A DNA stretch of 64,000 nt from Candidatus Omnitrophota bacterium. GTDB taxonomy: Bacteria; Omnitrophota; Gorgyraeia; Tantalellales; Tantalellaceae. The translations under genes were made by a program, and so were the position numbers. Each line of letters begins with the position of its first letter. Position 1 is the stretch's first letter. Below, piece after piece: positions 10,564-61,908 of this stretch. The notes below the pieces were generated by a model, which made no database searches, was not told the origin of the DNA, and saw only the letters and a program-made list of their open reading frames with translations. Location: assembly GCA_024277375.1 (NCBI GenBank), contig JAJRVD010000041.1, forward strand, positions 2,323 through 66,322, in the 5' to 3' direction.

Positions 10564-10689
10564 TGTGGATAACTCCGTAAATTATGATTAATGTATGTTT
10601 TACGTAAAAAAAAACCTGTGGACATCTAGTCCTCTTGTTGTGCGTAATGTGGATAAACCTATGAAGAGTTGTCCACAAGAAATCCACAA
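10564..10689. promoter_or_regulatory. Cluster of DnaA boxes in the dnaA-dnaN intergenic region
   Basis: TGTGGATAA at 10564-10572 and 10648-10656, TTGTCCACA at 10669-10677 and AATCCACAA at 10681-10689. Confidence 0.55.
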
Positions 10690-10696
10690 GAAAAAC

Positions 10697-12097: not shown

Positions 12098-12106
12098 AAA
12101 AAACAA

Positions 12107-12478
12107 AAGTCCGAAAGTTATCCAAAAGTATCAACAAAAAAAACAGGTTTATCCACCGGAAACAAACCACCTATCAACAGGTTATCCACAGGGTGTGAGT
12201 AACAAACAGTCGCCTTCCCGTATGGAGACCTTATTATATACAGAAGGGAAGACCTTTGCAAGTAAATTTTATGAAGAAATAGAACGAAAAAAGGGGTTGA
12301 CGTGGGCGCCTTGTATGATATAATCAGTGGTTGTATTTTTTGGGAAAGCAATAATAAGGGCGGAGATCCTTCGGCTTGACCTCGTTAACCCCGGTCTCGC
12401 TCAGGATAAAGTCGGTCATACAACTTATGTCGCTTTGCTCCATAAGTTGTATGACCTCATTCAATAAGGAGTTTTTAA
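12107..12478. other. Candidate oriC: an AT-rich region with DnaA boxes between dnaA and rpmH, ending in a perfect 16-bp inverted repeat
   Basis: TTATCCAAA at 12117, TTATCCACC at 12149 and TTATCCACA at 12182. A perfect palindrome GGTCATACAACTTATG...CATAAGTTGTATGACC lies at 12396-12447. The canonical dnaA/rpmH divergent arrangement is present. Confidence 0.55.
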
Positions 12479-15048: not shown

Positions 15049-17271
15049 TCAAGAAGGCACCGGCTCTTCTTCCTCCTCTTGAATGATTTCAATAAAAGTA
15101 TTCACTATCTCAGGGTCAAAATGCGAGCCTGAAGAGTCTTGAATGATCTTTATGGCTGTTCCCGTGTCAAAAGCTTTTCGATAAGGCCGATCAGAAGTGA
15201 GAGCTTGATAAACATCGGCTAACGCGATAATACGCGCCCCGCGCGGGATCTCAGAACCCGCAAGCCCGCAAGGGTACCCTCCCCCATCCCACTTTTCGTG
15301 ATGGTAATAAATTAGAGGAATAATATCCTGCAGAAAATGTATGGGACGCAAAATGTCAGCGGCTATCTGAGGATGTTTTTTTATCTCTTCGAATTCCTGT
15401 TCTGTGAGCTTGCCGGCCTTTAGAAGGATCTTATCGCTTATACCCACTTTTCCCAGGTCATGCAACATAGCTCCCTGTCGGATGCGTTCTATTTCTTCCG
15501 GAGGAAGGCCCAGTTTTTTGGCGATCTTTAGCGCGTAACGAACGGTTTTCTCCACATGGTCGCCTGTATAATTGTCTTTCATCTCGATAGTTTTGGCAAA
15601 AGCAAAAATAGCTTCCGCCGAGCTCTGGTTTTCCCTCTTGGTAAGACGCTCCAGCTTATTGGCGAGACTTTGCATGTTGTCCGTGTCGGAAGACATGGTC
15701 CGGGAAGACCGCTTTTTTATGGAGGAGAGATCATAAACTCTATTCCCTCCGTCTGACTGGGCTTTGTGCAGTATCTTTTCGGTTTTGTCTATTAAGCTGG
15801 ATCCCTTCGAGGCCTTGTCTTCAGGATATGAAGAGACCCCCACACTTAACCGTAACTGCACAGTATGTTGTTTGTCTCCGAATTTATAGAAATTTACCGT
15901 TTCCAGGATCCTTTGAGTCAGCGCCATAGTGATGGTTTTGTCTATGCGCGAAGAGATAACCACAAATTTTTCTCCTTCAAGGCGGGTGATAACATCATAC
16001 TTGCGGAACGTTTGCTGCAGGTATTCCGCGAATTGTTTTAGCACCAGATCGCCAAACTTTCGGCCATAAAGATCGTTAATTGATTTAAAATAGTCTATGT
16101 CAAGCATGACTACCGATAACGGGTATCCCATCCTTTTTGCCCGATCAAACTCGGCCTCAATGGATTTTTCAAGGAAACGATGATTATAAAGACCGGTAAG
16201 AGGGTCTATTAAAGCAAGCTCTCTCAGTTTTTTATTCGCGGCGATAAGGTCTTTCTGGAATTGTCTTATTTGTTCATCGAAATTTCTACGTTCAGTAACG
16301 TCTTCACCGGAACTCAGGCATCCGATGACTTTCCCGTCGGGGTCTTTAACGGCGGCGTGGCGCCAGGAGATCGTCCGCTCTTCCCCGCTTTTTGTTAAAA
16401 CAGGAAGCTCAAAAGAATCAAAAGTTTTGAAGCGACCGGAAAGCACTTTGTCAAAAATTTCCGTCATCGGTTCCTTCAGTCTTCGCGGAACAAAATTAGT
16501 AAACCAGTTTTTGCCTACGATATCTTCCCTTTTTTGCCCCAGGATCATGCAGCCGCAGTTATTGATCCTTTCAACTTTTTTATCCGGCCCTATCACAACC
16601 ATCAAAACATCAGCTATATCAAAATAAAGCCTCACCTTGTCGCGCTCCTCTTTTAACGCGTTTTCGGTGCGCTTAAGTTGTGTGATATCTTTGAAAACTC
16701 CTATAATATGCGCTAACTTGCCCTTTTCATCCTTTATCATGGAACCCGTGACAATTAAGGGGATCTTTTTGCCTTGTTTCGTAAGCGCGATGGTCTCAAA
16801 TTTTTTCATTACGCCGGAACGCACCATATCTTCCATTGTTTTTATGTGGGAAGAGAGCTCTTTCCGGGGAAAAAGCTTAAAGATAGACTTGCCCACTATC
16901 TCCCGGGTGGTATAACCCCAAATTCTCGTGAAAGCGTTGTTTATGCTGGCGACTTTCGCGTCAGGCGTCATTACGATCACGGCATCAGCTATGGCATTAA
17001 AGTACTGTGCCGATTTCTCGAGATCCTCGTAGGACTTAAGGTTAACGGGGGTTTTAGTGCTTTTTGAAGAGCGTAGGTACTCATTAACAAGCGCATGTAG
17101 TTTTATGTGCCCGAGTTTAGACTCGATCTTGGCCGCGGCCACCTGAGCTTCGACTTCCTTCAAGACGGCTTCAGCCTCTTTTCTTGAAGCGCTCACAGTT
17201 TCGCGCAGCCGTTTGCCGTTTATGCGGTAGTCAATGAAGTATTTGCCGTTTTTTTTACGTAAAGTAGCCAT
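15049..17271 (-). CDS. Multidomain signalling protein: integrase arm-like N-terminus, 2-3 PAS domains, a degenerate GGDEF domain and an HD-GYP c-di-GMP phosphodiesterase
   Basis: The HD-GYP motif is intact (MLHDLGK...HHEKWDGGGYP). The GGDEF signature is degenerate (RLEGEKF). The N-terminal sequence is KNGKYFIDYRINGKRLRETVSASRKEAEAVL. Confidence 0.88.
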   Translation of the reverse strand: MATLRKKNGKYFIDYRINGKRLRETVSASRKEAEAVLKEVEAQVAAAKIESKLGHIKLHALVNEYLRSSKSTKTPVNLKSYEDLEKSAQYFNAIADAVIVMTPDAKVASINNAFTRIWGYTTREIVGKSIFKLFPRKELSSHIKTMEDMVRSGVMKKFETIALTKQGKKIPLIVTGSMIKDEKGKLAHIIGVFKDITQLKRTENALKEERDKVRLYFDIADVLMVVIGPDKKVERINNCGCMILGQKREDIVGKNWFTNFVPRRLKEPMTEIFDKVLSGRFKTFDSFELPVLTKSGEERTISWRHAAVKDPDGKVIGCLSSGEDVTERRNFDEQIRQFQKDLIAANKKLRELALIDPLTGLYNHRFLEKSIEAEFDRAKRMGYPLSVVMLDIDYFKSINDLYGRKFGDLVLKQFAEYLQQTFRKYDVITRLEGEKFVVISSRIDKTITMALTQRILETVNFYKFGDKQHTVQLRLSVGVSSYPEDKASKGSSLIDKTEKILHKAQSDGGNRVYDLSSIKKRSSRTMSSDTDNMQSLANKLERLTKRENQSSAEAIFAFAKTIEMKDNYTGDHVEKTVRYALKIAKKLGLPPEEIERIRQGAMLHDLGKVGISDKILLKAGKLTEQEFEEIKKHPQIAADILRPIHFLQDIIPLIYYHHEKWDGGGYPCGLAGSEIPRGARIIALADVYQALTSDRPYRKAFDTGTAIKIIQDSSGSHFDPEIVNTFIEIIQEEEEEPVPS

Positions 17272-18280: not shown

Positions 18281-18396
18281 GACTGTGCCATAATGTAGGG
18301 GCTTGATTCATCAAGCCCGTTATATCGGGTTCGATGAATCGAACCCCTACATTATGTTGTATACGGCCATTCACGAAACGAATTACGACACAGCCC
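18281..18396 (+). mobile_element. MITE-like repeat, copy 4; supplies a spurious N-terminal extension to the parA ORF
   Basis: GACTGTGCCATAATGTAGGGGCTTGATTCATCAAGCCC...AATTACGACACAGCCC. Confidence 0.85.
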
Positions 18397-18497
18397 GCTT
18401 GTCCCGAGCGAAGCCGAGGGAAAGGGCCGAGTCGAAGGATCTAAAAACGCGAGATAAATCATTGACACAAGAACACCCGTGTGATATAGTGATTTCG

Positions 18498-19328
18498 ATG
18501 AAGAAGATAGCATTTTGCAATCAGAAGGGCGGCGTAGCAAAGACAACATCAGCAATAAACATTGCCGCGTATCTTGCCTTGAATGGAAGAAGAACACTCC
18601 TGGTAGACCTGGACCCCCAGGCAAACGCTACAAGTGGCGTAGGCATTGACAAAGAGAATATCACCCAAAGCATCTATAATGTGCTGCACGAACACATAAC
18701 ACCAAAAGAAGCCGTCATGGAGACGGCAATAGAGAATTTGTATGTGCTGCCGTCAAACATAAGTCTTACCGGCGCGGAAGTAGAACTCGTAAATGTTATG
18801 GGCAGAGAGTACAGGCTTAAGAAAGCGTTGGAAGAGATCCAGACAGAATTTGATTATGCTATCTTTGATTGTCCTCCGTCGTTGGGGCTTTTGACGATCA
18901 ATGGTCTTACGGCAGCGGATTCAGTAATTGTTCCCATACAATGCGAGTACTACGCACTGGAAGGGGTAGGCCAGTTGATGAAAACATTAGAGCTTATCCG
19001 GGAGAATTTAAATGAAAGGTTAGCCATAGAAGGGATCCTTATGACCCTGGCAGACTTCCGGACGAATCTGACCAAAGAAGTCATAAGCGAAGTGAAACAG
19101 CATTTTGGTGATAAGGTTTACCGGACAATAATACCCAGAACCATCAAGCTGACAGAAGCTCCCGGGTTCGGGAAACCAATAGCTTTATATGCGGAGCATT
19201 CAACGGGCGCAAAAAAATACGCGGAGGTGACCAGAGAGATACTGGGGTTGCCATTAAGCTCGCAACTTATTGAGGGCGAAGAAGTTGCAGCAACGACAGA
19301 GGAGAGTCATGGAGAAGCGATTGGGTAA
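18498..19328 (+). CDS. parA: Chromosome partitioning ATPase ParA/Soj
   Basis: MKKIAFCNQKGGVAKTTSAINIAAYLA... (deviant Walker A). The true ATG is at 18498; the ORF-track start at 18303 lies inside the MITE. Confidence 0.95.
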   Translation: MKKIAFCNQKGGVAKTTSAINIAAYLALNGRRTLLVDLDPQANATSGVGIDKENITQSIYNVLHEHITPKEAVMETAIENLYVLPSNISLTGAEVELVNVMGREYRLKKALEEIQTEFDYAIFDCPPSLGLLTINGLTAADSVIVPIQCEYYALEGVGQLMKTLELIRENLNERLAIEGILMTLADFRTNLTKEVISEVKQHFGDKVYRTIIPRTIKLTEAPGFGKPIALYAEHSTGAKKYAEVTREILGLPLSSQLIEGEEVAATTEESHGEAIG

Positions 19329-20142
19329 AGGGCTAGGCGCTCTTATTTCAGAAGAACCGAGTAAAGCGAAAGAAAAGGTAGAAAAGATCCGGTTGACGGA
19401 AATAGTTCCAAACCCGTTTCAGCCGCGGAAAAACTTTGGTTCGGAAAAAATGGAAGACCTGATAAACTCTATTCGCGAAAAAGGCGTGATCCAGCCCATA
19501 CTGGTTCGTCCGGTTGACACCGGGTACGAGATAATAGCCGGTGAAAGAAGATGGCGAGCCGCCCAACAATTAGAGTTGGAAGAGATCCCGGCGCTAGTAA
19601 GAAAAGAAACAGATGACGTCAGTAGTCTTGAGATCTCAATTATCGAGAACATCCAGAGAGAAGAACTCAATCCCATTGAAGAAGCAAGCGCTTATCAGGA
19701 GCTGGTAAGTAAGTTTGCGTATACATTAGACAACGTCGGCCGGATGGTCGGTAAAGATAAAACAACGATCTCTAACAGCCTGCGGCTCTTATCCCTCTCG
19801 AAAGAGATCCGGATCCTCATAGAAGAAGGAAGGATCTCATCTGGCCACGCCAAAGCGCTTCTGTCTGTTTCAAGCGAAAGGAAGAGAAAGGCAATTCTTG
19901 TAGCGATCCTCCGGAAGGGCCTGTCAGTCAGGGAAGCGGAACATTTGGCCAAGAAAACAGGACAGTTAAAAACCAAAACAAGCAGGGCAAAAGATCCGGA
20001 AGCTCTCAGGATAGAAGAAGACCTCCGCCATAAGCTCGGGACCAAAGTGAACATCCGCCAGGGCAAAAAAAGAGGGCAGATAGAGATCCAGTACTATTCC
20101 AATGAAGACCTTCAGCGCATCCTGGGTCTCATCCTTTCGTAA
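19309..20142 (+). CDS. parB: Chromosome partitioning protein ParB/Spo0J
   Basis: ParB box (GERRWRAA) and HTH present. ATG at 19309 follows a GAGGAGAG RBS; the ORF track starts at 19270. Confidence 0.9.
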   Translation: MEKRLGKGLGALISEEPSKAKEKVEKIRLTEIVPNPFQPRKNFGSEKMEDLINSIREKGVIQPILVRPVDTGYEIIAGERRWRAAQQLELEEIPALVRKETDDVSSLEISIIENIQREELNPIEEASAYQELVSKFAYTLDNVGRMVGKDKTTISNSLRLLSLSKEIRILIEEGRISSGHAKALLSVSSERKRKAILVAILRKGLSVREAEHLAKKTGQLKTKTSRAKDPEALRIEEDLRHKLGTKVNIRQGKKRGQIEIQYYSNEDLQRILGLILS

Positions 20143-20403
20143 AACGAAATCAAAAATAACATAGGAGCGGCCTCCCCTCGACCTCGCTCGGGACAGGCTG
20201 GCCGCGAACCAGTGGTGCATTTCTACCGGGGGCGACGGATCTCTGTTGCGGCAAAGTGCGAACCATGTTATTGCACAAAGGGGAAGTTAGAAAGGCAAAA
20301 GGAAGCAAGCTTTGAGTTGAGCGAACGAAGCGTTTCTGCTATAATGTTATAATAACAAACACCTAGAAGGCAAAACATATAGTAAACGTAGTACATAACA
20401 CAT

Positions 20404-23400
20404 ATGAACAAACGCTATATCACACACAAAATAACTATAAAGATCATATCCACTCTCGTGGTGTGCCTGTTTATGGTGAACTCGTTCGCCTGGGCAATGC
20501 CGCGTCAAATCAATATTTCCTCAACAAAGACCCTTCAAGCCGAGCTGATGACAGCAAGGATATTGAAAAACATAGACATCCAATATAGAGATACCGCCGC
20601 GGTAGAGGTAAAAACTATCCTTACAATGCTGGGAAGAGGAGATCCGATCCTGAACATAAACGCGGCATTAAGCATCGCCCATGGCGAAGCTGAAAAGATG
20701 TCAGATCCTATCTTGGAAGTAAAATTCCTTGATGACGTAGGAGCTGCCTCCGGCAGCGAACAAAAAAGCGACGAAAGAACGGTTGAATTAAGATACAAAG
20801 ACAAACCGAGGGAAGTACCGATCTGTCGAGTGATCAGGTCAAAGAATGGCAGAATATGGGTCGAGGATATCCTTGAAGAAAAACCCTTTGAGGATTTATT
20901 CGGCGAGATATTGGAACAGGTGGACGAAGAAAACAAAAGAAAAGCCGGGAAAGAGCTGGAGACAATTATCGCGATGGCGCTGGCCGCGGAACCCTATCCG
21001 AATATAAATGAGGCGTTAAATGGTTTTGCCGCCGCCAAAGAAAGGGGCAAACGGATATTAGAAATAAAGTCACCGGTTTACAGAACGGACGGAACGGTCG
21101 CGATTGAAATCGGATTTTTAGGGATGCCGCATGGAGGGCCTAAGTATAGAATTATTCTGAAGGGGTGCCGGGACAAGGAAGACCTGGCAAGAGAGCCCAG
21201 TAAGATAGAAATAAAAAGAATAAAATTTTATGAAGCTTGGCGGGAGTATAGAGTAGAGAAAAAATATCCGCGCTATGCGGATAGAAGCGGATACGGATTC
21301 ATAGGTGGTCCCAGGGGAGACATCGCGGAGGCATACAGAAAAGGGTTAATTTTCAAGATGAAGGAATCCGGATTGAGCGAAGATGAGAAGCGTTTGGTCT
21401 CAGACGCACTCATCCGCGTAACCGAAGGATCTATGCGGGACCGTAAAGAGTTTTTCTCGGAAGGAGAGATAGCCGAGATTTTGTGTTACAGCGATTTTAA
21501 CATAAAAGGTCTCATTTCAAAAATAATAAAGGAAAAGAACAAATACGAGGCGGTAGTTGACGAGAAAGGAAAAAGGCTCTTTAGCGAAAAGCAGATAAAC
21601 GCTCTTGTTCTTAGAAGATTCGCGCCATTAAGCTGGATCGAGAATCTCCGGAATGGAGGGCTCTCTAAAGCAGAGGCCGTTGAATGCGTGAAAAGATGGG
21701 CGAGGCCTAAAGAAGAATGGAAAAGGCTTGAGCCGGTCAGAGATAAGATAGTCGCGGGAAAATGGTTTAAGAGAAGAGAAGCGAACCGCATAGTTACAAG
21801 ATGGAAGGACGCGGAAGAAAAGGCCAGAGATATTAAAGATATCTGCGGGACTCTGATAAAAGACGGACTTTCAAAGTCAAGCGCTCTTGGTATTGTTTTG
21901 CAGTGGAAGAATCCGAAGAAAAAGTGGAAGAATACACTTGAACCTCTCCTTAACAGATTAGTAAAAAAGGGAATACCCCGAGGAGTAGCGTTTCAATTGG
22001 TTATTAAACACAGGGACCCGGAAAAGAAACTGGAAGACATACAGGATGACGTCGAGATGCTAAAGGGAAAGGGGCTTACAGAGTCAGCCGCGATGCGCTT
22101 TGCCATAAGGCACGCGAATGTGGAAGACAAATGGAATGAAATGATAAAAAACAGTAAAAAGATCAGGAAGCAAGGGTGGAGCCGGCGGCAGGCGATGATC
22201 ATAGCATACAAGTATAGGGACCCGGAAAACGAGGGAAGAAAAAGAACGATAGTATATGAGCAACTTATTAAAGAGGGGATACCCGAAGAAAGAGCGAAAG
22301 AATGCGTCATAAAATGGACTCACGCCGCAGAAAAGATCAAAGCGGTAGAAAAAACAACAAAGCTCATCGAAGAGAAGTTGCGGGGCAAGGTGAAAAAAGT
22401 TTTCGTGTGGGTGTTAAATAACAGCTATGGGAATCTAAAAAAGAAATTACGGTATAGATATAAGCAAACAGGTGACGAAATCGCGAGGCTACTTGAGCCT
22501 TTGCGCGAATACGAGGAAAAATACGGACAAGAAAAGGAAGACAACTTTGAGATCATAGAGAAAGGAGCGAGAAAGAAAGAACAAGGCGAACAAAAAAAGC
22601 CAAAAGCGAAGAAGAAAGAACGAAAAATAGAAACATTTACGGTAGACATGGAGGACGGGATATATGATCCAAAAGCAATTATAGGGACGGAAAAAAAGAA
22701 AAAGAGAAAGCTAGCTAAAAGTATGGCGGAAACAGAAGTGGAAGTTTTTAGTCCGGAAGAAGGGAAGAAGCACAAACAAGAAATGATCAGACATCTGACG
22801 GAGGTGGTACTTGCTGAAATCGCGGACGACTCGACGCGTATCGCGATAAGAAACAAAAAAGTTGTAGGGTTTGTGGAATTCGCTTACAGGACAGGAAAAC
22901 AAGAGGCACAAATCAAGAGAATTACAGTCTCCGAAGAAGAGCGCGATAAAGGTGTCGGGCACAGCTTGATGGATAAGGCGGTTAACGCGATTCTTGAACA
23001 CGACCCAAACAATAACAAAATACAAATAAAAGCGCCAACAGGAAAAGAAGGGTTCTATCGGGAGAAATATCTTCCGGGAAGAGAAAAAAACAAAACAACG
23101 AACGTGCCGTGGTACGTGGAATGGCATGCGCCGGCAGGGTACGCCGGCGGCGTCCGTTTTGATGTGACGGTATATAAGAAGAAACAAGAAACTTCCATAA
23201 AGAAGCAAAATGCTCCTCCTCGGAATAAAGAGGGTTTTACCTCTGTGTGTACGCTTGAAGTGGAGGGCAAAATATTTGTAGTACGTCAGCTTGTTCACGA
23301 GAAAAATAACAACGGATATAGTTATAAAGTAAGAGATATTGGGGTTTACGAGGTTAAGAGCGGGGGAAAGGAAATTTTCGCGGGCGGTATTTTCTATGTC

Positions 23401-26400
23401 ATTCCGCCAAGGGGACCAAGCACGGCTTTTACTTCACGAGACTATGGATATGGTTTTCTGAAAGAAACAATGAACGGGTACCCGTTCTACATAGAACCGG
23501 AGTACCGGAGGGGATATCATCTAGGGAAACTGTTAATGGCGATAGCGGCTCAATCTATGAAGAATATGGATGGCCTGACGGATTATTCGTATAAGACACC
23601 GACTGATGATGTTGAAAGGGTTTTGCGCAAGATTTTTCCTGAATACCCGGGAGGCGGCGAGGTTGATCTCGAGGGAGACGACAATGCAGGGGAGATATTG
23701 ACGTGGTTTGTAGAAAACGCGGGAATGGTTGTTTCCGCTGAATGGTTGATTTCCGGTAATAAAACTAAAGACAATGCAAGTACCCGTCAGATCGGCAAAG
23801 GACCAAAAGTCGATAACGTCGACCTCGAAACAAACCAGGCGACCGCAACAGATTCAGAGGGACGTGAACACACGCTTACTTTAACGGCTAAAGGAAAGGC
23901 AAAGATGCCGAAGCTAAAAGTGCTGACAGAAAGCATAGACTACGAGAACGAAGACCACAGGAAAAACATCCTTACCGTTTTAGATCTCTTAGAAAATTCC
24001 CTTTCTCGGGAACTACCGGACTTGTATACCTACCCAGAACTTATTGAAGACCTTTTCGGGTTTATCCCACCCGATGACTCAACAAACATAATAGCGTTAC
24101 ACGAAACAATGGAAGCCGAACCGATAGCGCGATTCCATGAGATCGCGCATCATTACATGGAGCGCGGGGCATGGAGCATGGAGATGAAGGGCTATATGCT
24201 AACGTTAACTATAAACGGGACAGAGCAGAAACTGGATGTCTCCCGGGCCAGAAGAAACTTGGCGGACGAAAAAGAAGATTGGATCAAGTGGACGGATGAC
24301 GAGCTTAATCAGGAGAAAAACCGGCACTATTTATTAAGAATACTCCAGAGAGCGATATTTAGAGAGAAGGATCTGGCGCTGACAAAGAAGATCAAACAAG
24401 AACAAAAGAGACGCGAAATATCGCGTGAAACGGTAAAGAGAATGTTGAGGCTCGAGCAGGAAATAATGTCGTATAAGTCGCCTGAGATCCGCGTGGCCGC
24501 TATACAGGCGTTAGGCGCGATATATTTAGCGCTTATCAAGCAGGGGCATGATGTCGATCTAGCGATTTTTGAGAAGGAAATACAAAGCACGGAAAGTATA
24601 CTTTGTAATGCTTCTATCAATGTAATGGGGGAACTTTTCTTTACTCTTGCGGGACAAGGAAAAAAAATTAACTTAACCGTAGTAGAGAAAGAATTGATTA
24701 ACGGAGATAAAGTGGATCTGCCGCGTTTGGTGGAGTGGTTACGTAAGATATATCCGGAAATTATCATAAAAGGACACTCCTTCAACATGAGGAGTATTTT
24801 TGAAGCTATGTGTGAAAGCGATCCTATATCAGCTAGTGTGATCAGACCGTTGCTGGTTGATGCTATAAAGCTCTACATTGATAATGGGAAAGAGATTGAT
24901 ATTACGTATTTGATTGACAAAATGGGAAAAAAGGATTTTGAGAACATCGAAGAGACGGTAGAAACAATAAGAGATGTATATGTTTTGTCGGCGGGCGGAG
25001 GTGAAGATATAGATATAACATGCTTAAAACAAATGGAAACAATACTCTTTGATGGGGGATTGTTTGAGAAGAGTTCGGAAGGAGAAGAAGGATATAGCGA
25101 ATATAGGATAGTTAGAGCGCTGGTGATGGAAATAGGGGACATACACAGCGTTTTTATCGAAAACGATATTAACGTAGAGATAACGAACATTGAAGAAAAT
25201 TTATCTAATAAGAACATGAAAATTCGTTATAGTGCGTTGGAAATAATGGAGGATATTCTTATCGCGCGTGCGCAAAAAAGAAGAGAGATCAATTTGGAGA
25301 AAATTAAAAAAATGAGAACAGATCCGGAAAAAGGAATAAGAGACGCGGCAAGTAAGACAATAAAAAGAGTAGAAAAAATACTGGAAAATAGCTACAAAAA
25401 AGCAACTATAAACAAAAAGCAACAAGAGGAAGTTGATGGTGGCGAACATGACGAGATAGTAAGAAGAATGGAAAAGGTGTACGGTAAAGATGTGATAAAT
25501 GACAAAACAAAAATAAGAACAATAAAGACCGAGGACGGGACGATGGTTTCCTCAATAACTCATTATCCCCGCGGGGAAGAGGATGAGGATCTTGTTCGCG
25601 AAGGCAAAGTCGAGGAAGACGCGAAAAAAATCATTACAAAAATAAAAAAAGGAAAAAACCCCAGTCTGAACAAACTAACAAAGGCTTTATTGGATGAAGC
25701 TTTTAATGTTAATCACACGGCCCTTCAAGCGCTGTTAAGGGTTTGTGCTGCTATCTTTGAAGCGGGAAAAGACGTAGATGTAAATATTTTCAAAAATGGT
25801 TTAGTTGCCAAAGTAGAAGTCACGGAAAGCATACGAGAAGAAACCGGGGACATTGTGCTTCAGCTATATGAGCTTTATTGGGAAGAGGGTCAGGAGGTCG
25901 ATACGAAGATGTTGAAGGACATTCTGACTCGAAGTAAATATAAGTATGCGCATGATGATCTGACAAATACGATCGCTAAAGGATTTAAATACTTCAACAG
26001 TGACGACCGGGAGTTCTTTGTGAAGGTCTTTGGGGGGTTGACGCAGGATGAGGATCGATGTATCAGTGAAGCCGCCGTGAACTCCCTAGAGCTCATCATT
26101 GGAGATCTTTCTGGAGAGGAGAAACAAGGGGCTATAAAAGAATTCGAAAAAAGATTGGGAAACATGACATTTATCTCTAAAGTAAAAGCGATAAAGAGTC
26201 TAGGTAAAATATATACGTCAGATTTTCTTAAAGGGAAAGAAACAGATATTATTAAAAAGCTTGGTAAATACGTGAATGACGAAAAAGCGGAAATAAGGGT
26301 AAGCGCTATCGTCTCTATAGGAGAGTATTTTATAGCCCTTGTGGAAGATGGGCAAGTCGTTGATTTGGATATATTAGAGGAAAAACTGGAGGACAAAGAT

Positions 26401-27300
26401 GCAGTAGTCAGAGGGAGGACCATAATAGAGCTTAATAAAATTTATCTTGCTATGATCGAAAAAGGCATTGTTCCTGATGTGTTTTTATTTATAAAAAAGC
26501 TAAAAGACTCTGATGAATTTGACTGGGGGGGGGAATGGGAGGATGGCCCGACCGTTACCAAGCTCGAAGATGGCGCATATTTGTACCAAAGCGAAATACA
26601 AGTAAAAACTGCCGCTAAACATGCTTTATATACAACATGTACGACTTTAGCAAGGGGAAAAATAAATTTTGATAAAAAATTATTAGAAAAAAGACTTTTT
26701 GACGATGATAAATCTTTTTGTGAGGATATTGTTTATGTTTTAGGTGAGATCTATGCCGCTCTTGCTGAAACCGACCAGGATATCGACATGGACGAATTGG
26801 AAGGATATTTGTTCCATGAAGAAGAAAGCTTCCGCAATTTTGCCGCGTACGCTTTAAGTCGGATATATGAAGTGCAATCTGAAAAAGAAAGACAGGGGAT
26901 AGTTTCCGCGGAAGACCTTGAAAAATACCGAGTATGGAAAAAGGCAAAACTACCGCTTATCGAAAAAGCGATAGATGATTATTTTCTTTCCGGCGGACCT
27001 GAGGAATATATAGAAGACCTTAAGCTTCGGGCGGATGAAGCAATATACGAAGGATTTAACACAAGAGACGATAAAGAGATGACCGCGGCTTTTGTGGGAG
27101 TAAGGAGCCATGGGATCAATATCAGTTTTAATGAGTTTGAAGAAAGGATAAAGGAAACAAAAGAGTGCAGCCAACACTTGTCTAATAAAGACGAAAAGTT
27201 TGGGCAATCTCCGAGAGATCGCTTTGAAGATCTTTTTAAAAAAGAAAAAAGACTTAAGCCTATAGAAGTGAGCGCGCGGGATTCGCGTGTTGTGGATTAA
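20404..27300 (+). CDS. Giant (2298 aa) Lys/Glu-rich protein with a signal anchor, an unknown N-domain, about 7 tandem 36-aa Trp-containing repeats, two degenerate GNAT-like folds and a C-terminal HEAT/PBS-lyase-like repeat array
   Basis: Uninterrupted 6.9-kb ORF. The signal peptide is ISTLVVCLFMVNSFAWA. The tandem repeats have the form GLSKAEAVECVKRWARPKEEWKRLEP... GNAT motif A-like sequences include RITVSEEERDKGVGHSLMDKAVNAI and YIEPEYRRGYHLGKLLMAIA. HEAT-like units include SPEIRVAAIQALGAIYLAL. All antisense ORFs in this span are short. Confidence 0.85.
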   Translation: MNKRYITHKITIKIISTLVVCLFMVNSFAWAMPRQINISSTKTLQAELMTARILKNIDIQYRDTAAVEVKTILTMLGRGDPILNINAALSIAHGEAEKMSDPILEVKFLDDVGAASGSEQKSDERTVELRYKDKPREVPICRVIRSKNGRIWVEDILEEKPFEDLFGEILEQVDEENKRKAGKELETIIAMALAAEPYPNINEALNGFAAAKERGKRILEIKSPVYRTDGTVAIEIGFLGMPHGGPKYRIILKGCRDKEDLAREPSKIEIKRIKFYEAWREYRVEKKYPRYADRSGYGFIGGPRGDIAEAYRKGLIFKMKESGLSEDEKRLVSDALIRVTEGSMRDRKEFFSEGEIAEILCYSDFNIKGLISKIIKEKNKYEAVVDEKGKRLFSEKQINALVLRRFAPLSWIENLRNGGLSKAEAVECVKRWARPKEEWKRLEPVRDKIVAGKWFKRREANRIVTRWKDAEEKARDIKDICGTLIKDGLSKSSALGIVLQWKNPKKKWKNTLEPLLNRLVKKGIPRGVAFQLVIKHRDPEKKLEDIQDDVEMLKGKGLTESAAMRFAIRHANVEDKWNEMIKNSKKIRKQGWSRRQAMIIAYKYRDPENEGRKRTIVYEQLIKEGIPEERAKECVIKWTHAAEKIKAVEKTTKLIEEKLRGKVKKVFVWVLNNSYGNLKKKLRYRYKQTGDEIARLLEPLREYEEKYGQEKEDNFEIIEKGARKKEQGEQKKPKAKKKERKIETFTVDMEDGIYDPKAIIGTEKKKKRKLAKSMAETEVEVFSPEEGKKHKQEMIRHLTEVVLAEIADDSTRIAIRNKKVVGFVEFAYRTGKQEAQIKRITVSEEERDKGVGHSLMDKAVNAILEHDPNNNKIQIKAPTGKEGFYREKYLPGREKNKTTNVPWYVEWHAPAGYAGGVRFDVTVYKKKQETSIKKQNAPPRNKEGFTSVCTLEVEGKIFVVRQLVHEKNNNGYSYKVRDIGVYEVKSGGKEIFAGGIFYVIPPRGPSTAFTSRDYGYGFLKETMNGYPFYIEPEYRRGYHLGKLLMAIAAQSMKNMDGLTDYSYKTPTDDVERVLRKIFPEYPGGGEVDLEGDDNAGEILTWFVENAGMVVSAEWLISGNKTKDNASTRQIGKGPKVDNVDLETNQATATDSEGREHTLTLTAKGKAKMPKLKVLTESIDYENEDHRKNILTVLDLLENSLSRELPDLYTYPELIEDLFGFIPPDDSTNIIALHETMEAEPIARFHEIAHHYMERGAWSMEMKGYMLTLTINGTEQKLDVSRARRNLADEKEDWIKWTDDELNQEKNRHYLLRILQRAIFREKDLALTKKIKQEQKRREISRETVKRMLRLEQEIMSYKSPEIRVAAIQALGAIYLALIKQGHDVDLAIFEKEIQSTESILCNASINVMGELFFTLAGQGKKINLTVVEKELINGDKVDLPRLVEWLRKIYPEIIIKGHSFNMRSIFEAMCESDPISASVIRPLLVDAIKLYIDNGKEIDITYLIDKMGKKDFENIEETVETIRDVYVLSAGGGEDIDITCLKQMETILFDGGLFEKSSEGEEGYSEYRIVRALVMEIGDIHSVFIENDINVEITNIEENLSNKNMKIRYSALEIMEDILIARAQKRREINLEKIKKMRTDPEKGIRDAASKTIKRVEKILENSYKKATINKKQQEEVDGGEHDEIVRRMEKVYGKDVINDKTKIRTIKTEDGTMVSSITHYPRGEEDEDLVREGKVEEDAKKIITKIKKGKNPSLNKLTKALLDEAFNVNHTALQALLRVCAAIFEAGKDVDVNIFKNGLVAKVEVTESIREETGDIVLQLYELYWEEGQEVDTKMLKDILTRSKYKYAHDDLTNTIAKGFKYFNSDDREFFVKVFGGLTQDEDRCISEAAVNSLELIIGDLSGEEKQGAIKEFEKRLGNMTFISKVKAIKSLGKIYTSDFLKGKETDIIKKLGKYVNDEKAEIRVSAIVSIGEYFIALVEDGQVVDLDILEEKLEDKDAVVRGRTIIELNKIYLAMIEKGIVPDVFLFIKKLKDSDEFDWGGEWEDGPTVTKLEDGAYLYQSEIQVKTAAKHALYTTCTTLARGKINFDKKLLEKRLFDDDKSFCEDIVYVLGEIYAALAETDQDIDMDELEGYLFHEEESFRNFAAYALSRIYEVQSEKERQGIVSAEDLEKYRVWKKAKLPLIEKAIDDYFLSGGPEEYIEDLKLRADEAIYEGFNTRDDKEMTAAFVGVRSHGINISFNEFEERIKETKECSQHLSNKDEKFGQSPRDRFEDLFKKEKRLKPIEVSARDSRVVD

Positions 27301-27306
27301 GGCAGT

Positions 27307-30300
27307 GTGGATACGGATGTTTTTGACAGGCATTTTTCAAAATTAGTTACGATAAAAAACAATATAGACAGTTTAGAGTGGTTAGAGGAGCTTCCGGGGA
27401 AAAAGTTTACACTTGAAAATGTTTACCACAAGTTTAAAAAACAACAGGCGGGCATTCCCGAAAAGGAAAATTCCCACTTTGTTCTTCCCGGTGAGAGGAA
27501 AAGAATAAAAACGGAATTATTAGAAGACAGAAAGATACTTTACCGGGTATTGTTCAGAATGTTAAAGGACAGGTTGAACGACAGGCAAGCAAGGGAGAAG
27601 TATCTGATTTTAATGAGAGATCTGGCCATAAGCGACAGCCTGTTAAGTTATTCTTTGGTGGCGGGCATGAGGTCCGAATATATGGAGAAACAAATAAGCG
27701 CGTTCAGGTTTCTTTACGAGGAAGACAAAAACAACTTAATTGAAGACGTTATGAAGGGAGAGAAAGAAAGCACTAAAAAGAAGCTAACAAAAACGTTAGC
27801 AGAAGGGTTTGATGAATTGTCCCGGGAAATATATGAAGAGATAGGGAAGATAAGGATCACCGTGATCAAGGGAAAAGAGAACAGGTATCGCCTGGTTCCG
27901 GCAGGTTTTTTAAGCTTGTTTAGAGGAAGAGCTGGGATATTTGATTGTTCTTTTAAATGTGAGCAGGGAGGAGAAAATCCTCTTGTGCGAGCCATTCATG
28001 AAGACAACAGTTATTATCTTGTATACAAGGGGAAAGAACTGAAAGGGTATGTAGGATTATGTTTTGGAAAGAACGAGAAAGGGGAAAGAATATTAACAGT
28101 AGACACTATTCAATCCCCCTCACTTGACGGAGAAGAGCTCTTAATGAACCTGTTTAAGGCCTTGGGCGTTGTGGCGGAAGAAAAGGGATGCATAGGTATA
28201 GCGCTTCCCGGCAACTTACGGCCGGATGCGATAGTATCTTTCAATTTTGATAACAAAAGAACCATAATGGATATGGATATATATAAGAATGCTCCGTCTG
28301 TTTATGTGGAACCGATAAACAAAAAAACGTGGGATAGTTTTTATCCGGAGTACGCGGAAGATAAACACGATTCAATGTTCTTTGGCAAGTTCAGATTAAT
28401 AACGCTTGAGATGTTGGGGCTTGCGGATGGATCGAGAAAAAGATGTGAAAGAAAAATAGACCTGGAAGACGGAATATATAACGCCGGAGAAATGATATCG
28501 GATAAGAGGATAAGCTTAAACAAGCTTTGTGTAGAGTTGACGAAGATAGAGATCGAGGCGTTTCGACCCGGAAAGAGGCGGAGCGAAAGATATATTAAAT
28601 TACTGGCTGGGACGTTTGTTGGGAATATCGAAAGAGATATTGCGCTTGTAGCCGTCAAGGACGGAGAGATCGTGGGCTTTATCCTGGCCGGAAAGAACGA
28701 TGGAGGGCTAGATCAAATAAAAGGGTTTGCGGTACGCCGGGGTGATAGGAGTAGGGGAATAGGGACGGGTCTTTTGGATAATGCGGTTGAGGCGTTTTTA
28801 GGGCACAGAGAGAGCTGTTCTTTTACTCTTCGGCCGTGGCCGGACGCTGAAAGTTTCTATACCGAAAAATATTTTCCATCACGAGTTAAAGGAAAAAGCA
28901 CAAAATCATGGTGGTTGGGAGCGGAGGCAGACCCCACAGAAAACAACACTTTAAAAGTGACCGTTTACAAAAAGGAAGAGATAGAACCGGGTTCGCTGGA
29001 CGAACAGTTGGAAAAAACCAAAGACGGAGTGTATGACGTAGAGTCGATCGTAAAAGAAAATGAAAATATTCTGCGGGAAGTGGTTGGAAGGTTATGCGTG
29101 ATAGCGGCGAGGGGCATAGGGTCGGAGAAAGTAAAAGCGGAAATATTAAGGAACGTAAACAACAAGGGTGTTTTAATGACGGTGAGAGAAAACGCAATAG
29201 TCGGGTTTATAGAATTCGGGTTCAATCCAGCGGAGCAGATGACAATAACGAATATTTTTGTTGACCAAGAGGAGTTATTTAACGAAGTGGGCTCCGAGTT
29301 AATGGATGAATTTGTAGAAGAAATTTTGGAAAAAGAAAATATCAATGACTTTAGGATTATAGCGGATCCGGACACGAGAACGTTTTATTCAAAATACATC
29401 AATAAGTGGAAACAAGAAAAAAGCAAAATCACCGCGATCAAAATCAGATTTAAATTATATAAACGGGGATGCGTAAAAATAAACGTTAACATTGAAGAAA
29501 GAATAGAGGAAGCAAGCTGGGGGGAGAGAAGAAAAAGAAAAGCGAAAAAAAGAATAAAAGAAGTTTGCCGGGAGACCCTAAAAGCTGAAAGAGAAAGGAA
29601 AGAGACAATAAATTCCGAGGAAGGAACAAAAATAAACATAATTACGGATGTGTCGCTTTTGACGGAAGAAGATCTGGAAGATAGCATAACGGAATGGGCA
29701 TATTTGATATTAAAATACAAGGAACACAAAAACGTAAACTTCATATTTAAACAGCTCTATCTGGATTATGGCGAAAAAAACATAATGTCCGACGCGTTGA
29801 TCCGGGATATTGTAAACGCCGTCAAGCCGAACGAGTTTGTAGCCGGCCTTCAAGCGCGTCTCGCGGCCCTGAACGAGGTATATACATTGGGGCTTGATAT
29901 CGAGAAGCTGTTTACGGAGAGGATAGGGGACAGCCTCTTTTTGCCCAAAAAGAGGCTATCCCCTAAAAAGTCCCCTGAAAAAAGTCCCGTAGAAATATTG
30001 ATATCTTCTTCCGAAATGTTCAAGTGGATCGAAGCAAAAGAGAAACAGCTGAAAAAAGAGCTTATAAAAGATAATCAATATCCTGTGGCTATGGAAGGAA
30101 GCACGGTGAGAGGGCAGAATTTAGCGGCGCTTTGGGATTTTCAAGGCGCGATGGATATGGCAATGGTAAAGGCGGAACTCGTTATAGCCAAGGAGAATGG
30201 TAATTTGGAAGAGACCGCCGAGAGGCTGTCGGAGCAGGTTAAGAAACTCTATGAGATCATGGACAAGAAAATAGAGGATATAGACGAAAAAACCCTTCAA

Positions 30301-30429
30301 TACATGATAAATGAACACTCCAAACTCGAAATGGCGATAGAAATGGCCCTCCCGGCCATCGGTCGAATGTCATACAAAGAACGTCAGATCCTGCACGGCT
30401 TCACTCAAGATGTCCTCCGCAACGTATAA
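27307..30429 (+). CDS. Large (1040 aa) multi-GNAT protein, paralogous over one module to the preceding giant protein
   Basis: A clear GNAT motif is present: IVGFILAGKNDGGLDQIKGFAVRRGDRSRGIGTGLLDNAV. Two more degenerate GNAT-like segments follow. The segment FYTEKYFPSRVKGKSTK...KVTVYKKEE parallels FYREKYLPGREKNKTTN...DVTVYKKKQE in the giant protein. Starts 6 nt after the upstream stop. Confidence 0.85.
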   Translation: MDTDVFDRHFSKLVTIKNNIDSLEWLEELPGKKFTLENVYHKFKKQQAGIPEKENSHFVLPGERKRIKTELLEDRKILYRVLFRMLKDRLNDRQAREKYLILMRDLAISDSLLSYSLVAGMRSEYMEKQISAFRFLYEEDKNNLIEDVMKGEKESTKKKLTKTLAEGFDELSREIYEEIGKIRITVIKGKENRYRLVPAGFLSLFRGRAGIFDCSFKCEQGGENPLVRAIHEDNSYYLVYKGKELKGYVGLCFGKNEKGERILTVDTIQSPSLDGEELLMNLFKALGVVAEEKGCIGIALPGNLRPDAIVSFNFDNKRTIMDMDIYKNAPSVYVEPINKKTWDSFYPEYAEDKHDSMFFGKFRLITLEMLGLADGSRKRCERKIDLEDGIYNAGEMISDKRISLNKLCVELTKIEIEAFRPGKRRSERYIKLLAGTFVGNIERDIALVAVKDGEIVGFILAGKNDGGLDQIKGFAVRRGDRSRGIGTGLLDNAVEAFLGHRESCSFTLRPWPDAESFYTEKYFPSRVKGKSTKSWWLGAEADPTENNTLKVTVYKKEEIEPGSLDEQLEKTKDGVYDVESIVKENENILREVVGRLCVIAARGIGSEKVKAEILRNVNNKGVLMTVRENAIVGFIEFGFNPAEQMTITNIFVDQEELFNEVGSELMDEFVEEILEKENINDFRIIADPDTRTFYSKYINKWKQEKSKITAIKIRFKLYKRGCVKINVNIEERIEEASWGERRKRKAKKRIKEVCRETLKAERERKETINSEEGTKINIITDVSLLTEEDLEDSITEWAYLILKYKEHKNVNFIFKQLYLDYGEKNIMSDALIRDIVNAVKPNEFVAGLQARLAALNEVYTLGLDIEKLFTERIGDSLFLPKKRLSPKKSPEKSPVEILISSSEMFKWIEAKEKQLKKELIKDNQYPVAMEGSTVRGQNLAALWDFQGAMDMAMVKAELVIAKENGNLEETAERLSEQVKKLYEIMDKKIEDIDEKTLQYMINEHSKLEMAIEMALPAIGRMSYKERQILHGFTQDVLRNV

Positions 30430-37804: not shown

Positions 37805-38317
37805 ATGAGCGAATATTTTTATCTGGTCGCGTCACTGCCAAGCATCACTTTTGGTCAAAAGCCGGACATCTCAAAGGACGAATTTATCGCTGAATGCGAA
37901 AAATGGCTTACGCCGGGTGATATGAAAATGGTGTTATCGGCGGATCTTAGCCGGGAAGATCCTGCCGGTGAAAATTCCGGATGTTTAGCGGCGTGGAAAC
38001 AGTTTGACGCGGGTTTAAGGGGAAAACTCGCGCTTCTCCGGCGTGCCCGCAAGAGAGGTGAAGAACATAAAACAACAGGCATCCTGAAAGAAGTTATGAA
38101 CGAAAAAAACCCGCTTTTAAAAGAAACGGCCCTGGAAAAAGTTCGTTGGGATTTTATCGAACACCAGGGCGTCGGCAGCTATTTTGACGTGAACCGGGTC
38201 GTACTTTATTTTTTACAATTACAAATTTCAGAAAGGCTTTCATCTTTCGACAAAGAGACTGGTGAAGGGATCTTTTACAAACTATGCGAGGTAGACCATG
38301 GAGAAACAAAAGGGTAA
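37805..38317 (+). CDS. V-ATPase operon-associated hypothetical protein, in the position of the conserved DUF gene of chlamydial/spirochaetal V-ATPase clusters
   Basis: MSEYFYLVASLPSITFGQKPDIS.... ATG at 37805; the ORF-track start at 37727 lies within the MITE. The gene overlaps the subunit A start. Confidence 0.6.
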   Translation: MSEYFYLVASLPSITFGQKPDISKDEFIAECEKWLTPGDMKMVLSADLSREDPAGENSGCLAAWKQFDAGLRGKLALLRRARKRGEEHKTTGILKEVMNEKNPLLKETALEKVRWDFIEHQGVGSYFDVNRVVLYFLQLQISERLSSFDKETGEGIFYKLCEVDHGETKG

Positions 38318-40013
38318 CATAGTAGCGATCAGTGGGAACATGATAACCATAGAGTTTGACGGCGATGTCATACAAAACGAAGTGGGTTACGTGCTGAGTC
38401 TTGGCAAGCGCTACAAATCGGAGATCATAAAGATCACTGGGAACAAAGCTTTCGCCCAAGTGTTCGAGTATACAAAAGGGATCAAAGTAGGAGACGAAGT
38501 TGAATTCTCCGGGGAGATGCTTTCGGTTCAGTTGGGGCAGGGACTTTTAACTCAGATATACGATGGGCTTCAAAATCCGCTTCCGGAGATGGCGGAAAAA
38601 TTCGGGTTTTTCCTGCCAGTGGGAGTAGAGTTAAACGCGCTTTCTTTTGAGAAAAAATGGGATTTTACGCCGGACGCGAAGGCCGGCGATAAAGTAGTTG
38701 CCGGCAGTGTTCTCGGGAGCGTCCCCGAAGGCCTCTTTAAACACAAGATAATGGTTCCGTTCTATCTGAACGGAGAGTACACGATTGAGAAAGTGACCGA
38801 AAAAGGAACATACCCGATCGAAAAGACAATAGCCGTGATCAAAGACTCTAAAGGGAGCTTGATCGACGTAACCATGACCTTTAACTGGCCGGTGAAGATC
38901 CCCGTAGACGCGTACAAAGAAAAATTGCAGCCCAAAGACGCGCTTGTTACGCGGATAAGAATTCTGGATACACTTTTTCCCATAGCCAAGGGCGGAACGT
39001 ATTGTATCCCGGGTCCGTTCGGAGCGGGCAAAACGGTACTTCAGCAGATAACCAGTCGTTACGCGGAAGTTGATATTGTTATCATAGCCGCCTGCGGAGA
39101 AAGAGCCGGGGAGGTTGTTGAAACGTTAAAAGAATTCCCCAAGCTTATTGACCCGCGGACGGGAAAATCTTTGATGGAACGGACGATCATTATTTGCAAT
39201 ACGTCTTCCATGCCCGTCGCGGCGAGAGAAGCTTCCGTGTATACCGGAACAACGCTCGCGGAATATTACAGGCAGATGGGACTTAACGTGCTTCTCCTCG
39301 CGGATTCGACTTCACGTTGGGCGCAGGCGATGAGGGAGATCTCCGGGCGACTTGAAGAAATACCGGGAGAAGAGGCATACCCGGCGTATTTAGAATCACG
39401 TATAGCGAGTTTTTATGAAAGGGCGGGTTTAGTGGAACTGTATGACGGTGAGATAGGTAGCCTTACTATCGGCGGCACCGTAAGCCCGGCCGGCGGGAAC
39501 TTCGAGGAGCCGGTTACGCAGGGAACACTTAAAGTCGTGGGAGCGTTTCATGGCCTTTCGCGCGAAAGGTCCGACGCTAGAAGGTTTCCCTCTGTGCACC
39601 CGCTGGAAAGCTGGAGTAAGTATAAAAGTTTTATAGATGACAGCCATGTCCGCAAAGCAAAAAGCATTCTGACGAAAGGTGACGAGGTTAACCAGATGAT
39701 GAAGGTTGTGGGGGAAGAGGGTACGTCCACCGACGATTTTGTTATATATCTTAAGAGCGATTTCGTTGACAGTGTTTATCTTCAACAGAACGGGTTTGAC
39801 CCGGTGGATGCTTCGACGACAGACGAGAGGCAGAAATATGTTTTCGCGAAAGTAGTGGAAGTTCTGGACAAAGAATTTACTTTTGAGGAAAAAGAAGACG
39901 CGCGGCACTTTTTCTATAATTTGAGACACAAGTTTATCGACTGGAACTACAAAGAGTGGGATTCCGACGAATTTAAAGAGCAGGAGAAAAAAATAAACGA
40001 GGCGATCGGATGA
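38298..40013 (+). CDS. atpA: V/A-type ATP synthase catalytic subunit A
   Basis: 571 aa with the Walker A motif GPFGAGKT. Confidence 0.97.
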   Translation: MEKQKGNIVAISGNMITIEFDGDVIQNEVGYVLSLGKRYKSEIIKITGNKAFAQVFEYTKGIKVGDEVEFSGEMLSVQLGQGLLTQIYDGLQNPLPEMAEKFGFFLPVGVELNALSFEKKWDFTPDAKAGDKVVAGSVLGSVPEGLFKHKIMVPFYLNGEYTIEKVTEKGTYPIEKTIAVIKDSKGSLIDVTMTFNWPVKIPVDAYKEKLQPKDALVTRIRILDTLFPIAKGGTYCIPGPFGAGKTVLQQITSRYAEVDIVIIAACGERAGEVVETLKEFPKLIDPRTGKSLMERTIIICNTSSMPVAAREASVYTGTTLAEYYRQMGLNVLLLADSTSRWAQAMREISGRLEEIPGEEAYPAYLESRIASFYERAGLVELYDGEIGSLTIGGTVSPAGGNFEEPVTQGTLKVVGAFHGLSRERSDARRFPSVHPLESWSKYKSFIDDSHVRKAKSILTKGDEVNQMMKVVGEEGTSTDDFVIYLKSDFVDSVYLQQNGFDPVDASTTDERQKYVFAKVVEVLDKEFTFEEKEDARHFFYNLRHKFIDWNYKEWDSDEFKEQEKKINEAIG

Positions 40014-40016
40014 ATC

Positions 40017-40058
40017 GGGGACAGTCCACGCGCGGCTTCGCCGCTTGGGACAGTCCCC
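40017..40058. repeat. GGGGACAGTCC-type hairpin element, copy c, immediately after the atpA stop
   Basis: GGGGACAGTCCACGCGCGGCTTCGCCGCTTGGGACAGTCCCC. Confidence 0.6.
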
Positions 40059-40191
40059 TGAGCAACCCACTGTCGTCCCGACCGAGCGCGGCCGAGGGAC
40101 ACCGTTCCCGAGGTCATTCTGAGGGCAGAGGGTCTCAGGGTAGCGAGCGGAGGGATCTTTGTGGGAAATAATATAACGGAGGGTAGTACAA

Positions 40192-61695: not shown

Positions 61696-61873
61696 CGGGC
61701 ACAGAGACGAAGTGATATAATCTAGTTAACACTTCCTGTCGAATTTGTGAAGCGGAACGCAGAATTGGGCCAACACTTTAATATCGGGAATCTAACTTCG
61801 GGAATTTTTAAAAAATTGTCGAGAGGGTACCCACCTGGGAATACCAGGCCACCAATTCTCTTTTCGTGCACGG

Positions 61874-61908
61874 TTTGATGGTTCTAGGGCCGGATTTATC
61901 CGGCCCTT
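61874..61908 (+). terminator. Intrinsic terminator (GGGCCGGATttatcCGGCCC followed by TTTTTATTT)
   Basis: GC stem with a T-rich tail; it may end a short transcript initiated near 61723 (TGATATAAT). Confidence 0.5.

Follow-up and report, generated by a model that had tools for sequence, protein, structure and literature searches.

An in-frame TAA codon divides a long HEAT-repeat and GNAT gene of an Omnitrophota bacterium into two open reading frames

Downstream of parA and parB in Candidatus Omnitrophota bacterium (assembly GCA_024277375.1, contig JAJRVD010000041.1), two long open reading frames (ORFs) lie head to tail on the plus strand, and the question raised by this locus was whether they constitute two genes or one. 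The stretch analyzed, referred to here as the window, is 64,000 nucleotides (nt) long. An earlier interpretation made from the letters of the DNA alone (the sequence-only reading) had described the ORFs as two tandem paralogous giant proteins. Its account of the layout was borne out: ORF1 (20404-27300, ATG start, 2298 amino acids [aa]; designated p1) and ORF2 (27307-30429, GTG start, 1040 aa; designated p2) are on the plus strand 6 nt apart, and both products are rich in lysine and glutamate (K 11.1% and E 11.2% in p1; K 10.2% and E 11.3% in p2). Its interpretation was not. The two ORFs are halves of a single gene of ~3,341 codons, cut by one in-frame TAA inside a conserved core.

Both ORFs lie in one frame (20404-1 and 27307-1 are multiples of 3), and the whole feature (20404-30429, plus strand) consists of 3,341 codons (2298 + TAA + 2 + 1040) with a single interruption. 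Translation across the gap between p1 and p2 reads ...IEVSARDSRVVD, stop, GSVDTDVFDRHF..., that is, one TAA (27298-27300, plus strand), two codons and then the GTG, which is preceded at a distance of 4 nt by a weak Shine-Dalgarno (SD)-like AAGG. Apart from this TAA, the 3,338 sense codons of the feature were free of stops. A multiple alignment with relatives identified the break as a codon-for-codon substitution and not an insertion or deletion (indel). The TAA occupies a variable column of the family core, in which relatives have T, A, F, I, V or P, and this column is flanked on both sides by conserved blocks (…KPIEVSA…D / x / ..VD..VFD..L…IDS..W). The sequence-only reading had considered the case in which the ORFs prove to be interrupted; in a sense this is what was found, the gene as assembled being interrupted by the TAA.

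The identity of the interrupted region was revealed by its relatives. A word-index search of 5.8 billion proteins returned almost no relatives of p1 and eleven of p2, and the part that the latter had in common was only the first ~370 residues of p2; the nearest homologues were 42-46% identical. BLAST against the p2 relatives placed the last 160-370 residues of p1 and the first ~370 residues of p2 next to each other on the same polypeptide, 3 residues apart. This back-to-back alignment was obtained with P0004-P0007 and P0009-P0012, for example at residues 1-327 (p1 part) and 331-690 (p2 part) of P0006, 450-951 and 955-1318 of P0005, 235-533 and 537-899 of P0007, and 203-586 and 590-948 of P0004. 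The multiple alignment of the core was collinear through the stop.

A 525-position profile of the core (profile A1) was searched against 1.84 billion cluster representatives and matched only 85 proteins, ~30 of which matched positions ~5-517 as one stretch. Residues 2140-2298 of p1 corresponded to profile positions 2-146 and residues 1-383 of p2 to positions 150-523, an end-to-end match to the core. All other non-redundant full-length cores (36/36) were uninterrupted; the core in the window is interrupted by the TAA. Similarly, 19 loci in species-representative genomes encode the core, and the frame across the junction was open in 18 of the 18 that could be evaluated; at these loci it is already open 365 or more codons ahead of the C-terminal block of the core, well past the junction. 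The open frame at these loci, the 36 continuous cores and the collinear alignment thus identify one interrupted gene and not two paralogues. Outside the stop, the window core retains 10/10, 10/13 and 49/56 (69/79) of the positions that at least 85% of the other members have in common, slightly under the family medians (0.91-0.95) and inside the family range.

This ~525-aa core, in which two helical sub-domains precede a cryptic GNAT-fold domain of high conservation, defines the family. The N-terminal helical part (26821-27297, plus strand; profile positions 2-146; helices at model residues 1-145) retains the 10/10 conserved positions, the central helical domain spans 27307-27882 (plus strand; p2 aa 1-192; predicted local distance difference test [pLDDT] 85-96), and the cryptic GNAT-fold domain spans 27883-28410 (plus strand; p2 193-368). 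The last carries an invariant S-x-S-L-D-G loop in the place of motif A, together with invariant FRG, HED, KGxxxKGY and FNFxN motifs. An AlphaFold model of the joined core with X at the stop (16-sequence alignment) had a mean pLDDT of 77 and a predicted template modeling score of 0.61. This model places the stop between a short beta-hairpin (148-157), which it immediately follows, and a helix (165-184), at a sub-domain boundary with pLDDT ~68, and the cryptic domain superposes on solved GNAT structures. The core profile had no match in Pfam or among PDB sequences, and NCBIfam returned nothing beyond the GNATs described below. The cryptic domain showed no sequence or profile similarity to GNAT families (hhalign probability 0.1%) and is without motif A, its loop reading S-P-S-L-D-G. 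Compared with solved GNATs (PA3270, 1yre; NatD/Naa40, 4u9w; RimI/RimJ; the TacT/AtaT toxins), the core domain is ~10% identical, and SxSLDG replaces Q/RxxGxG/A. In the family the core normally follows a HEAT array within one polypeptide that has a Sec-type leader at its start.

The joined protein has this organization. A Sec-type signal peptide was predicted at 20404-20496 (aa 1-31; this and the following features are on the plus strand), with a basic n-region, a 15-aa hydrophobic core and SFA/AWA; by inspection, the leader divides as MNKRYITHKITIK / IISTLVVCLFMVNSF / AWA, consistent with the pattern of small residues at -3/-1. In a hydropathy scan the sole hydrophobic segment of p1 and p2 was the N-terminal aa 5-33, ending in ...NSFAWA, in agreement with the N-terminal signal of the sequence-only reading. 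The ATG at 20404 is not preceded by an SD sequence. Similar leaders with a 'GFAQVA'/'SFAYS' motif occur in P0005, P0007, P0015-18, P0025, P0028, P0043, P0061 and others; the start and the leader are therefore features of the family.

Between the leader and the core the protein is modular. An orphan stretch (aa ~32-420) precedes the repeats and includes a region with an internal duplication (20542-21069; aa 47-107 against 163-222, 33% identity, E 2e-5) that had no Pfam match and no homologue in the family. The tryptophan-containing repeats follow (21658-22380; aa 419-659; G-L/I-S/P-x2-x-A-x5-W-x2-P-x3-W). Seven tandem copies were found, as had been claimed, and they have the G-L-S-K..A...V..W..P...W signature of the sequence-only reading, but their period is ~34.5 aa and not 36; they had no Pfam match at E<=10. 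GNAT 1 (22747-23196; p1 782-931) has an intact motif A, E-R-D-K-G-V-G, and matched PF13673, PF00583 and PF13508 at aa 803-886. The two degenerate GNATs that had been assigned to p1 therefore reduce to one good GNAT, the ERDKGVG domain. The supposed second one, in the unassigned segment at 23197-23838 (aa 932-1145), was not supported: aa ~940-1110 had no Pfam match, hhalign against a GNAT profile was negative, and an AlphaFold 2 model of aa 930-1130, for which there were no homologues, had pLDDT <50. The next module (23839-24423; aa 1146-1340) has a conserved HEIAH at aa 1245 and an invariant HYLLR..Q downstream, and is possibly a minimal zincin-like fold; the minigluzincins (selecase, abylysin, jannalysin) and other HExxH zincins are among the closest comparisons. 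A HEAT array (24424-26820; aa ~1341-2139, ~800 aa) leads into the core, with PF02985 (HEAT) at 33.2 bits and PF13646 (HEAT_2) at 33.1 bits, both above cut-off. It is self-similar over ~aa 1340-2140 and homologous to the HEAT regions of P0002 and P0004-P0007.

Two further GNATs follow the core. GNAT A (28438-28986; p2 378-560; Pfam match at aa 442-520) has an intact motif A, D-R-S-R-G-I-G, and GNAT B (29023-29526; p2 573-740; Pfam at ~620-677 and TIGR01575 at 620-677) a degenerate one, E-L-F-N-E-V-G. With the cryptic core domain, these account for the one intact and two degenerate GNATs previously proposed for p2. The protein ends in an orphan C-terminal region (29527-30429; p2 741-1040 and the terminal TAA) without a homologue in the family and with only a sub-threshold CdiI_3 match (18 bits against a cut-off of 28). 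Pfam thus upheld both the GNAT and the HEAT assignments above curated cut-offs, the classical GNAT domains scoring 31-49 bits against cut-offs of 20.7-27. The paralogy of p1 and p2 that had been claimed holds for a GNAT module of ~190 aa (p1 736-928 against p2 378-558; 32.6% identity, E 1e-20; also matching p2 573-737), with the FYREKY.../FYTEKY... segments as the C-terminal part of the GNAT unit, but not for the proteins as wholes. GNAT 1 is a paralogue of the two C-terminal GNATs. The single GNAT domains had no matches among PDB sequences, and permissive Pfam scans of six unannotated segments gave nothing significant. Judged by their motifs, the classical GNATs, two of them with motif A intact, are putative acyl-CoA-binding transferases.

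Two other members of the family may also be encoded by broken genes. At locus L001 (JGI Ga0434947_000037, positions 9940-10060), a -1 frameshift occurs at a CTTTTTAAAAAC run ~20 codons upstream of the position equivalent to the TAA, and the gene was called as a 600-aa HEAT ORF and a 918-aa 'GNAT' ORF (P0008) in different frames with a 55-nt overlap. This break looks like a homopolymer indel. A programmed -1 frameshift was considered and rejected, as the site, CTT TTT AAA AAC, does not form an X_XXY_YYZ heptamer when read in the upstream frame. At L004 (GCA_013285735.1, JABDGZ010000004.1, 6524-11923; on a contig shared with L017), an ORF with a signal peptide and P0009 lie in one frame as open segments of 1,115 and 684 codons, with a single TAA between them at 9869-9871. 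No homologue alignment spans this stop, and L004 is a possible second case of an in-frame TAA split. In the window, two DnaA-box-like 9-mers with 8/9 matches (minus strand, 27291-27299 and 27306-27314, 15 nt apart) straddle the TAA; each corresponds to a GTGGAT (Val-Asp) codon pair, and their presence here is probably a coincidence.

Our interpretation, held with moderate confidence, is that the locus is one interrupted gene for an exported HEAT-scaffold protein with several acyltransferase-type modules, a member of a rare core-defined family. As predicted from domain content, the intact protein would be exported through Sec and would act outside the cytoplasm, either at the cell surface or after being passed into a partner or prey cell with acetyl-CoA. 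The HEAT solenoid would serve as a protein-binding scaffold. The acyltransferase-like core domain and the GNAT modules, two of which have their CoA-binding motif intact, may modify amines in target proteins or in sugars of the cell wall. In its assembled form, the gene would yield a 2,298-aa exported fragment and, only upon re-initiation at GTG 27307, a 1,040-aa leaderless cytoplasmic fragment that would hold most of the core and two GNATs. Since both halves are otherwise intact, the stop would have arisen very recently by nonsense mutation, or would be a variant of the strain or an error in base calling, or else a tolerated break. No close relative of the window sequence was found in metagenome contigs.

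Several points weigh against this interpretation. GNATs depend on acyl-CoA, and this is unavailable outside the cytoplasm; extracytoplasmic action is thus awkward, and the dependence favors action inside another cell or at a cytoplasmic, membrane-tethered site. In the loci examined, no secretion system, immunity gene or conserved neighbor was found that would suit an effector role. The weak AAGG, which makes re-initiation possible, and the GTG right behind the stop would permit a functional two-gene arrangement, and L001 is frameshifted ~20 codons from the equivalent spot. The last two points agree with an alternative in which the TAA is genuine and fixed and re-initiation at GTG 27307 gives two chains that reassemble the core non-covalently or work separately. 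Both ORFs are indeed fully open with their conserved residues kept, the break is in a loop where two sub-domains meet, between the hairpin and helix 165 (pLDDT 68), and in L004 a TAA may split the gene at another place. However, the 36/36 other full cores and 18/18 genome loci are continuous, the break in L001 is at a T5A5 homopolymer, a typical site of indel error, and the L004 stop lacks a spanning homologue alignment. The leader, moreover, is on p1 only and would place the halves in different compartments; with p1 exported and p2 cytoplasmic, a functional split is hard to square with reassembly of the core. This alternative was judged unlikely. Far less probable still is programmed read-through or recoding of the TAA, with the 2,298-aa form as the main product and a full-length form of 3,341 aa as a minor one. 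The frame is kept over the stop, the 1,040 codons downstream are open and conserved, and a second family member (L004) may hold a single in-frame TAA. However, UAA is the least leaky bacterial stop codon, and the position of the stop is conserved in no relative. TAA is also the commonest ordinary stop in the window, ending 21/37 genes including parA, parB and the pyr genes, and there is no suppressor tRNA among the six tRNA genes of the window; recoding is therefore not credible.

The single interrupted gene could also encode a protein that is not exported, if the N-terminal segment is a membrane anchor or comes from a wrongly called start; the protein would then be a regulatory scaffold for acetylation in the cytoplasm, tethered to the membrane. 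GNATs whose CoA-binding motif is intact depend on the acetyl-CoA of the cytoplasm, which is also where HEAT and GNAT domains are typically found; the ATG at 20404 lacks an SD sequence; and a methyltransferase/GNAT/HAD/HD module of long Omnitrophota proteins has been read as compatible with the cytoplasmic face (10.64898/2026.06.07.730766). Against this, the basic n-region, the short h-region of 15 aa and the small-x-small site are consistent with a cleavable Sec signal in N-in/C-out orientation, the recurrence of the leader and its motif in many relatives argues that the start is real, and HEAT repeats have been placed outside the cell (10.1101/2023.11.21.568195). A non-exported scaffold was accordingly considered doubtful, and export of the protein from one interrupted gene was preferred.

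The relatives are mostly long or giant exported proteins with swappable enzyme cargo on a chassis of HEAT array and core. They span about 0.6-8 thousand amino acids (kaa) and more, with examples of 7,952, 7,703, 7,503, 5,596 and 5,070 aa, and several have >4,100 codons inside a 12.5-kb locus. Their metagenome-assembled genomes are labeled Omnitrophota, Elusimicrobiota, Margulisiibacteriota, Auribacterota, FCPU426, Planctomycetes and, in one case, Methanosarcinales. The cargo around the HEAT array and core included a methyltransferase (P0006), GNAT (P0008, P0017), an APH-like kinase (P0016) and HD (P0017), as well as the HExxH module. In P0014 (7,703 aa) the core profile matched in three stretches and the HExxH module occurred four times (2285, 3841, 5751 and 7407), a layout that suggests repeated cassettes of module plus cargo. 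The Methanosarcinales case is L005 (JAIWAR010000003.1, 1-12498), a family ORF of >4,166 codons on a contig binned as 'Methanosarcinales archaeon'; this is likely a contig placed in the wrong bin, or DNA of an attached bacterium that was binned together with the archaeon, and a described Omnitrophota predator co-localizes with Methanosaeta. Family members were absent from IMG/VR viral contigs, and the PADLOC anti-phage defence models gave no match.

A more far-reaching view of the family, which we regard as quite improbable, is that the chassis of HEAT array and core represents an unrecognized class of modular contact effectors that ultra-small episymbiotic or predatory bacteria export through Sec. 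The invariant cryptic GNAT-fold core would then be a new type of acyltransferase acting with swappable cargo (GNAT, methyltransferase, kinase, HD, zincin-like) on the proteins or envelopes of partner cells, and in the two genomes where the break is close to the same core hairpin, the protein would exist in a two-chain form that is tolerated or regulated. Modular exported effectors such as Legionella VipF and the polymorphic toxins offer a lead only: they combine a leader or trafficking part, a repeat scaffold, a pre-cargo domain and variable cargo, and some of their tandem GNATs are degenerate. Unlike in those systems, neither an immunity gene nor a dedicated secretion system lies nearby, and there is no sequence relationship to them.

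Closer parallels exist within the phylum, and the claim of the sequence-only reading that such proteins are not a described system was overstated. HEAT repeats in predicted extracellular regions of Omnitrophota giant proteins, with GNAT domains on the same proteins, have been reported, as have the Archaeovorins and Dockerin-type giants, with genes of >90 kb (>30,000 aa), many transmembrane helices and SecA_DEAD domains (bioRxiv 10.1101/2023.11.21.568195). The protein studied here is like these giants in its phylum setting, its N-terminal signal or anchor and its combination of HEAT, GNAT and mixed enzymes on one polypeptide. It differs in having a 10.0-kb gene, ~3.3 kaa, one hydrophobic segment, no SecA match in Pfam and a different conserved core that is not described in those papers. 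By the stated criteria it is not of the Archaeovorin/Dockerin type, but it resembles those proteins in kind. Very long Omnitrophota proteins with a methyltransferase/HATPase/GNAT/HAD/HD 'Module 1' have been described as a Pfam co-occurrence class of at least 10 kaa (bioRxiv 10.64898/2026.06.07.730766). The mixture of GNAT, methyltransferase, HD and APH-like kinase across the present family is similar; in contrast, the 'Module 1' proteins are not a homologous family, and the chassis of HEAT array and core is unnamed there. What is already known, therefore, is the existence of long HEAT- and GNAT-bearing Omnitrophota proteins at the domain level, and what is new is the unannotated ~525-aa core and the smaller variant. 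At that same level, the earlier suggestion of a lineage-specific family of long or giant proteins with a signal peptide, multiple GNATs and a HEAT array was supported.

These results correct an annotation artefact, two 'genes' becoming one interrupted gene, and delineate a rare cross-phylum family of exported HEAT-repeat proteins whose unannotated core conceals a GNAT fold. Should its members act on the cell surface or within partner cells, the family would provide a tractable entry to the experimentally intractable Omnitrophota giants, given a length of ~3 kaa against >30 kaa and domains that can be expressed individually.

The position of the gene next to parAB appears incidental. As previously described, parA (18303-19328) and parB (19270-20142) are directly upstream, with a gap of 261 nt between parB and p1, but the proposed functional link did not hold, as parA, parB or pyr genes were near none of the related loci (0/23) and the neighborhood is not conserved. 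The gap contains a promoter-like site (20317-20345, plus strand; TTGAGC-17 nt-TATAAT, TG-extended), and co-transcription with parAB is therefore not required; the site is no more than a match to the consensus, and sites of this kind are as frequent in the region as expected by chance. The order of genes in the window is gyrA, gyrB, dnaN and dnaA on the minus strand, then yidC, parA and parB. The GC/AT skew switches sign at ~10-12 kb, and 25 DnaA boxes (TTATCCACA, <=1 mismatch) were found in the window against 12.6 expected, with clusters at 10564-10730 and 12090-12190 flanking dnaA. The dnaA region of the window is probably oriC, and in such an origin region a location downstream of parAB would be incidental.

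Three other features of the window were recorded. Just upstream of parAB, the minus strand (15049-17271) encodes a 740-aa protein that combines two PAS domains with GGDEF and HD-GYP (HD_5) and would both make and break cyclic-di-GMP. Genes for V/A-type ATPase catalytic subunits (38298-41502, plus strand; ATP-synt_ab with ATP-synt_VA_C) are present in this bacterial origin-proximal region. A 6S RNA (RF00013) was identified at 61730-61885 on the plus strand, scoring 51 bits against a gathering score of 46.4.

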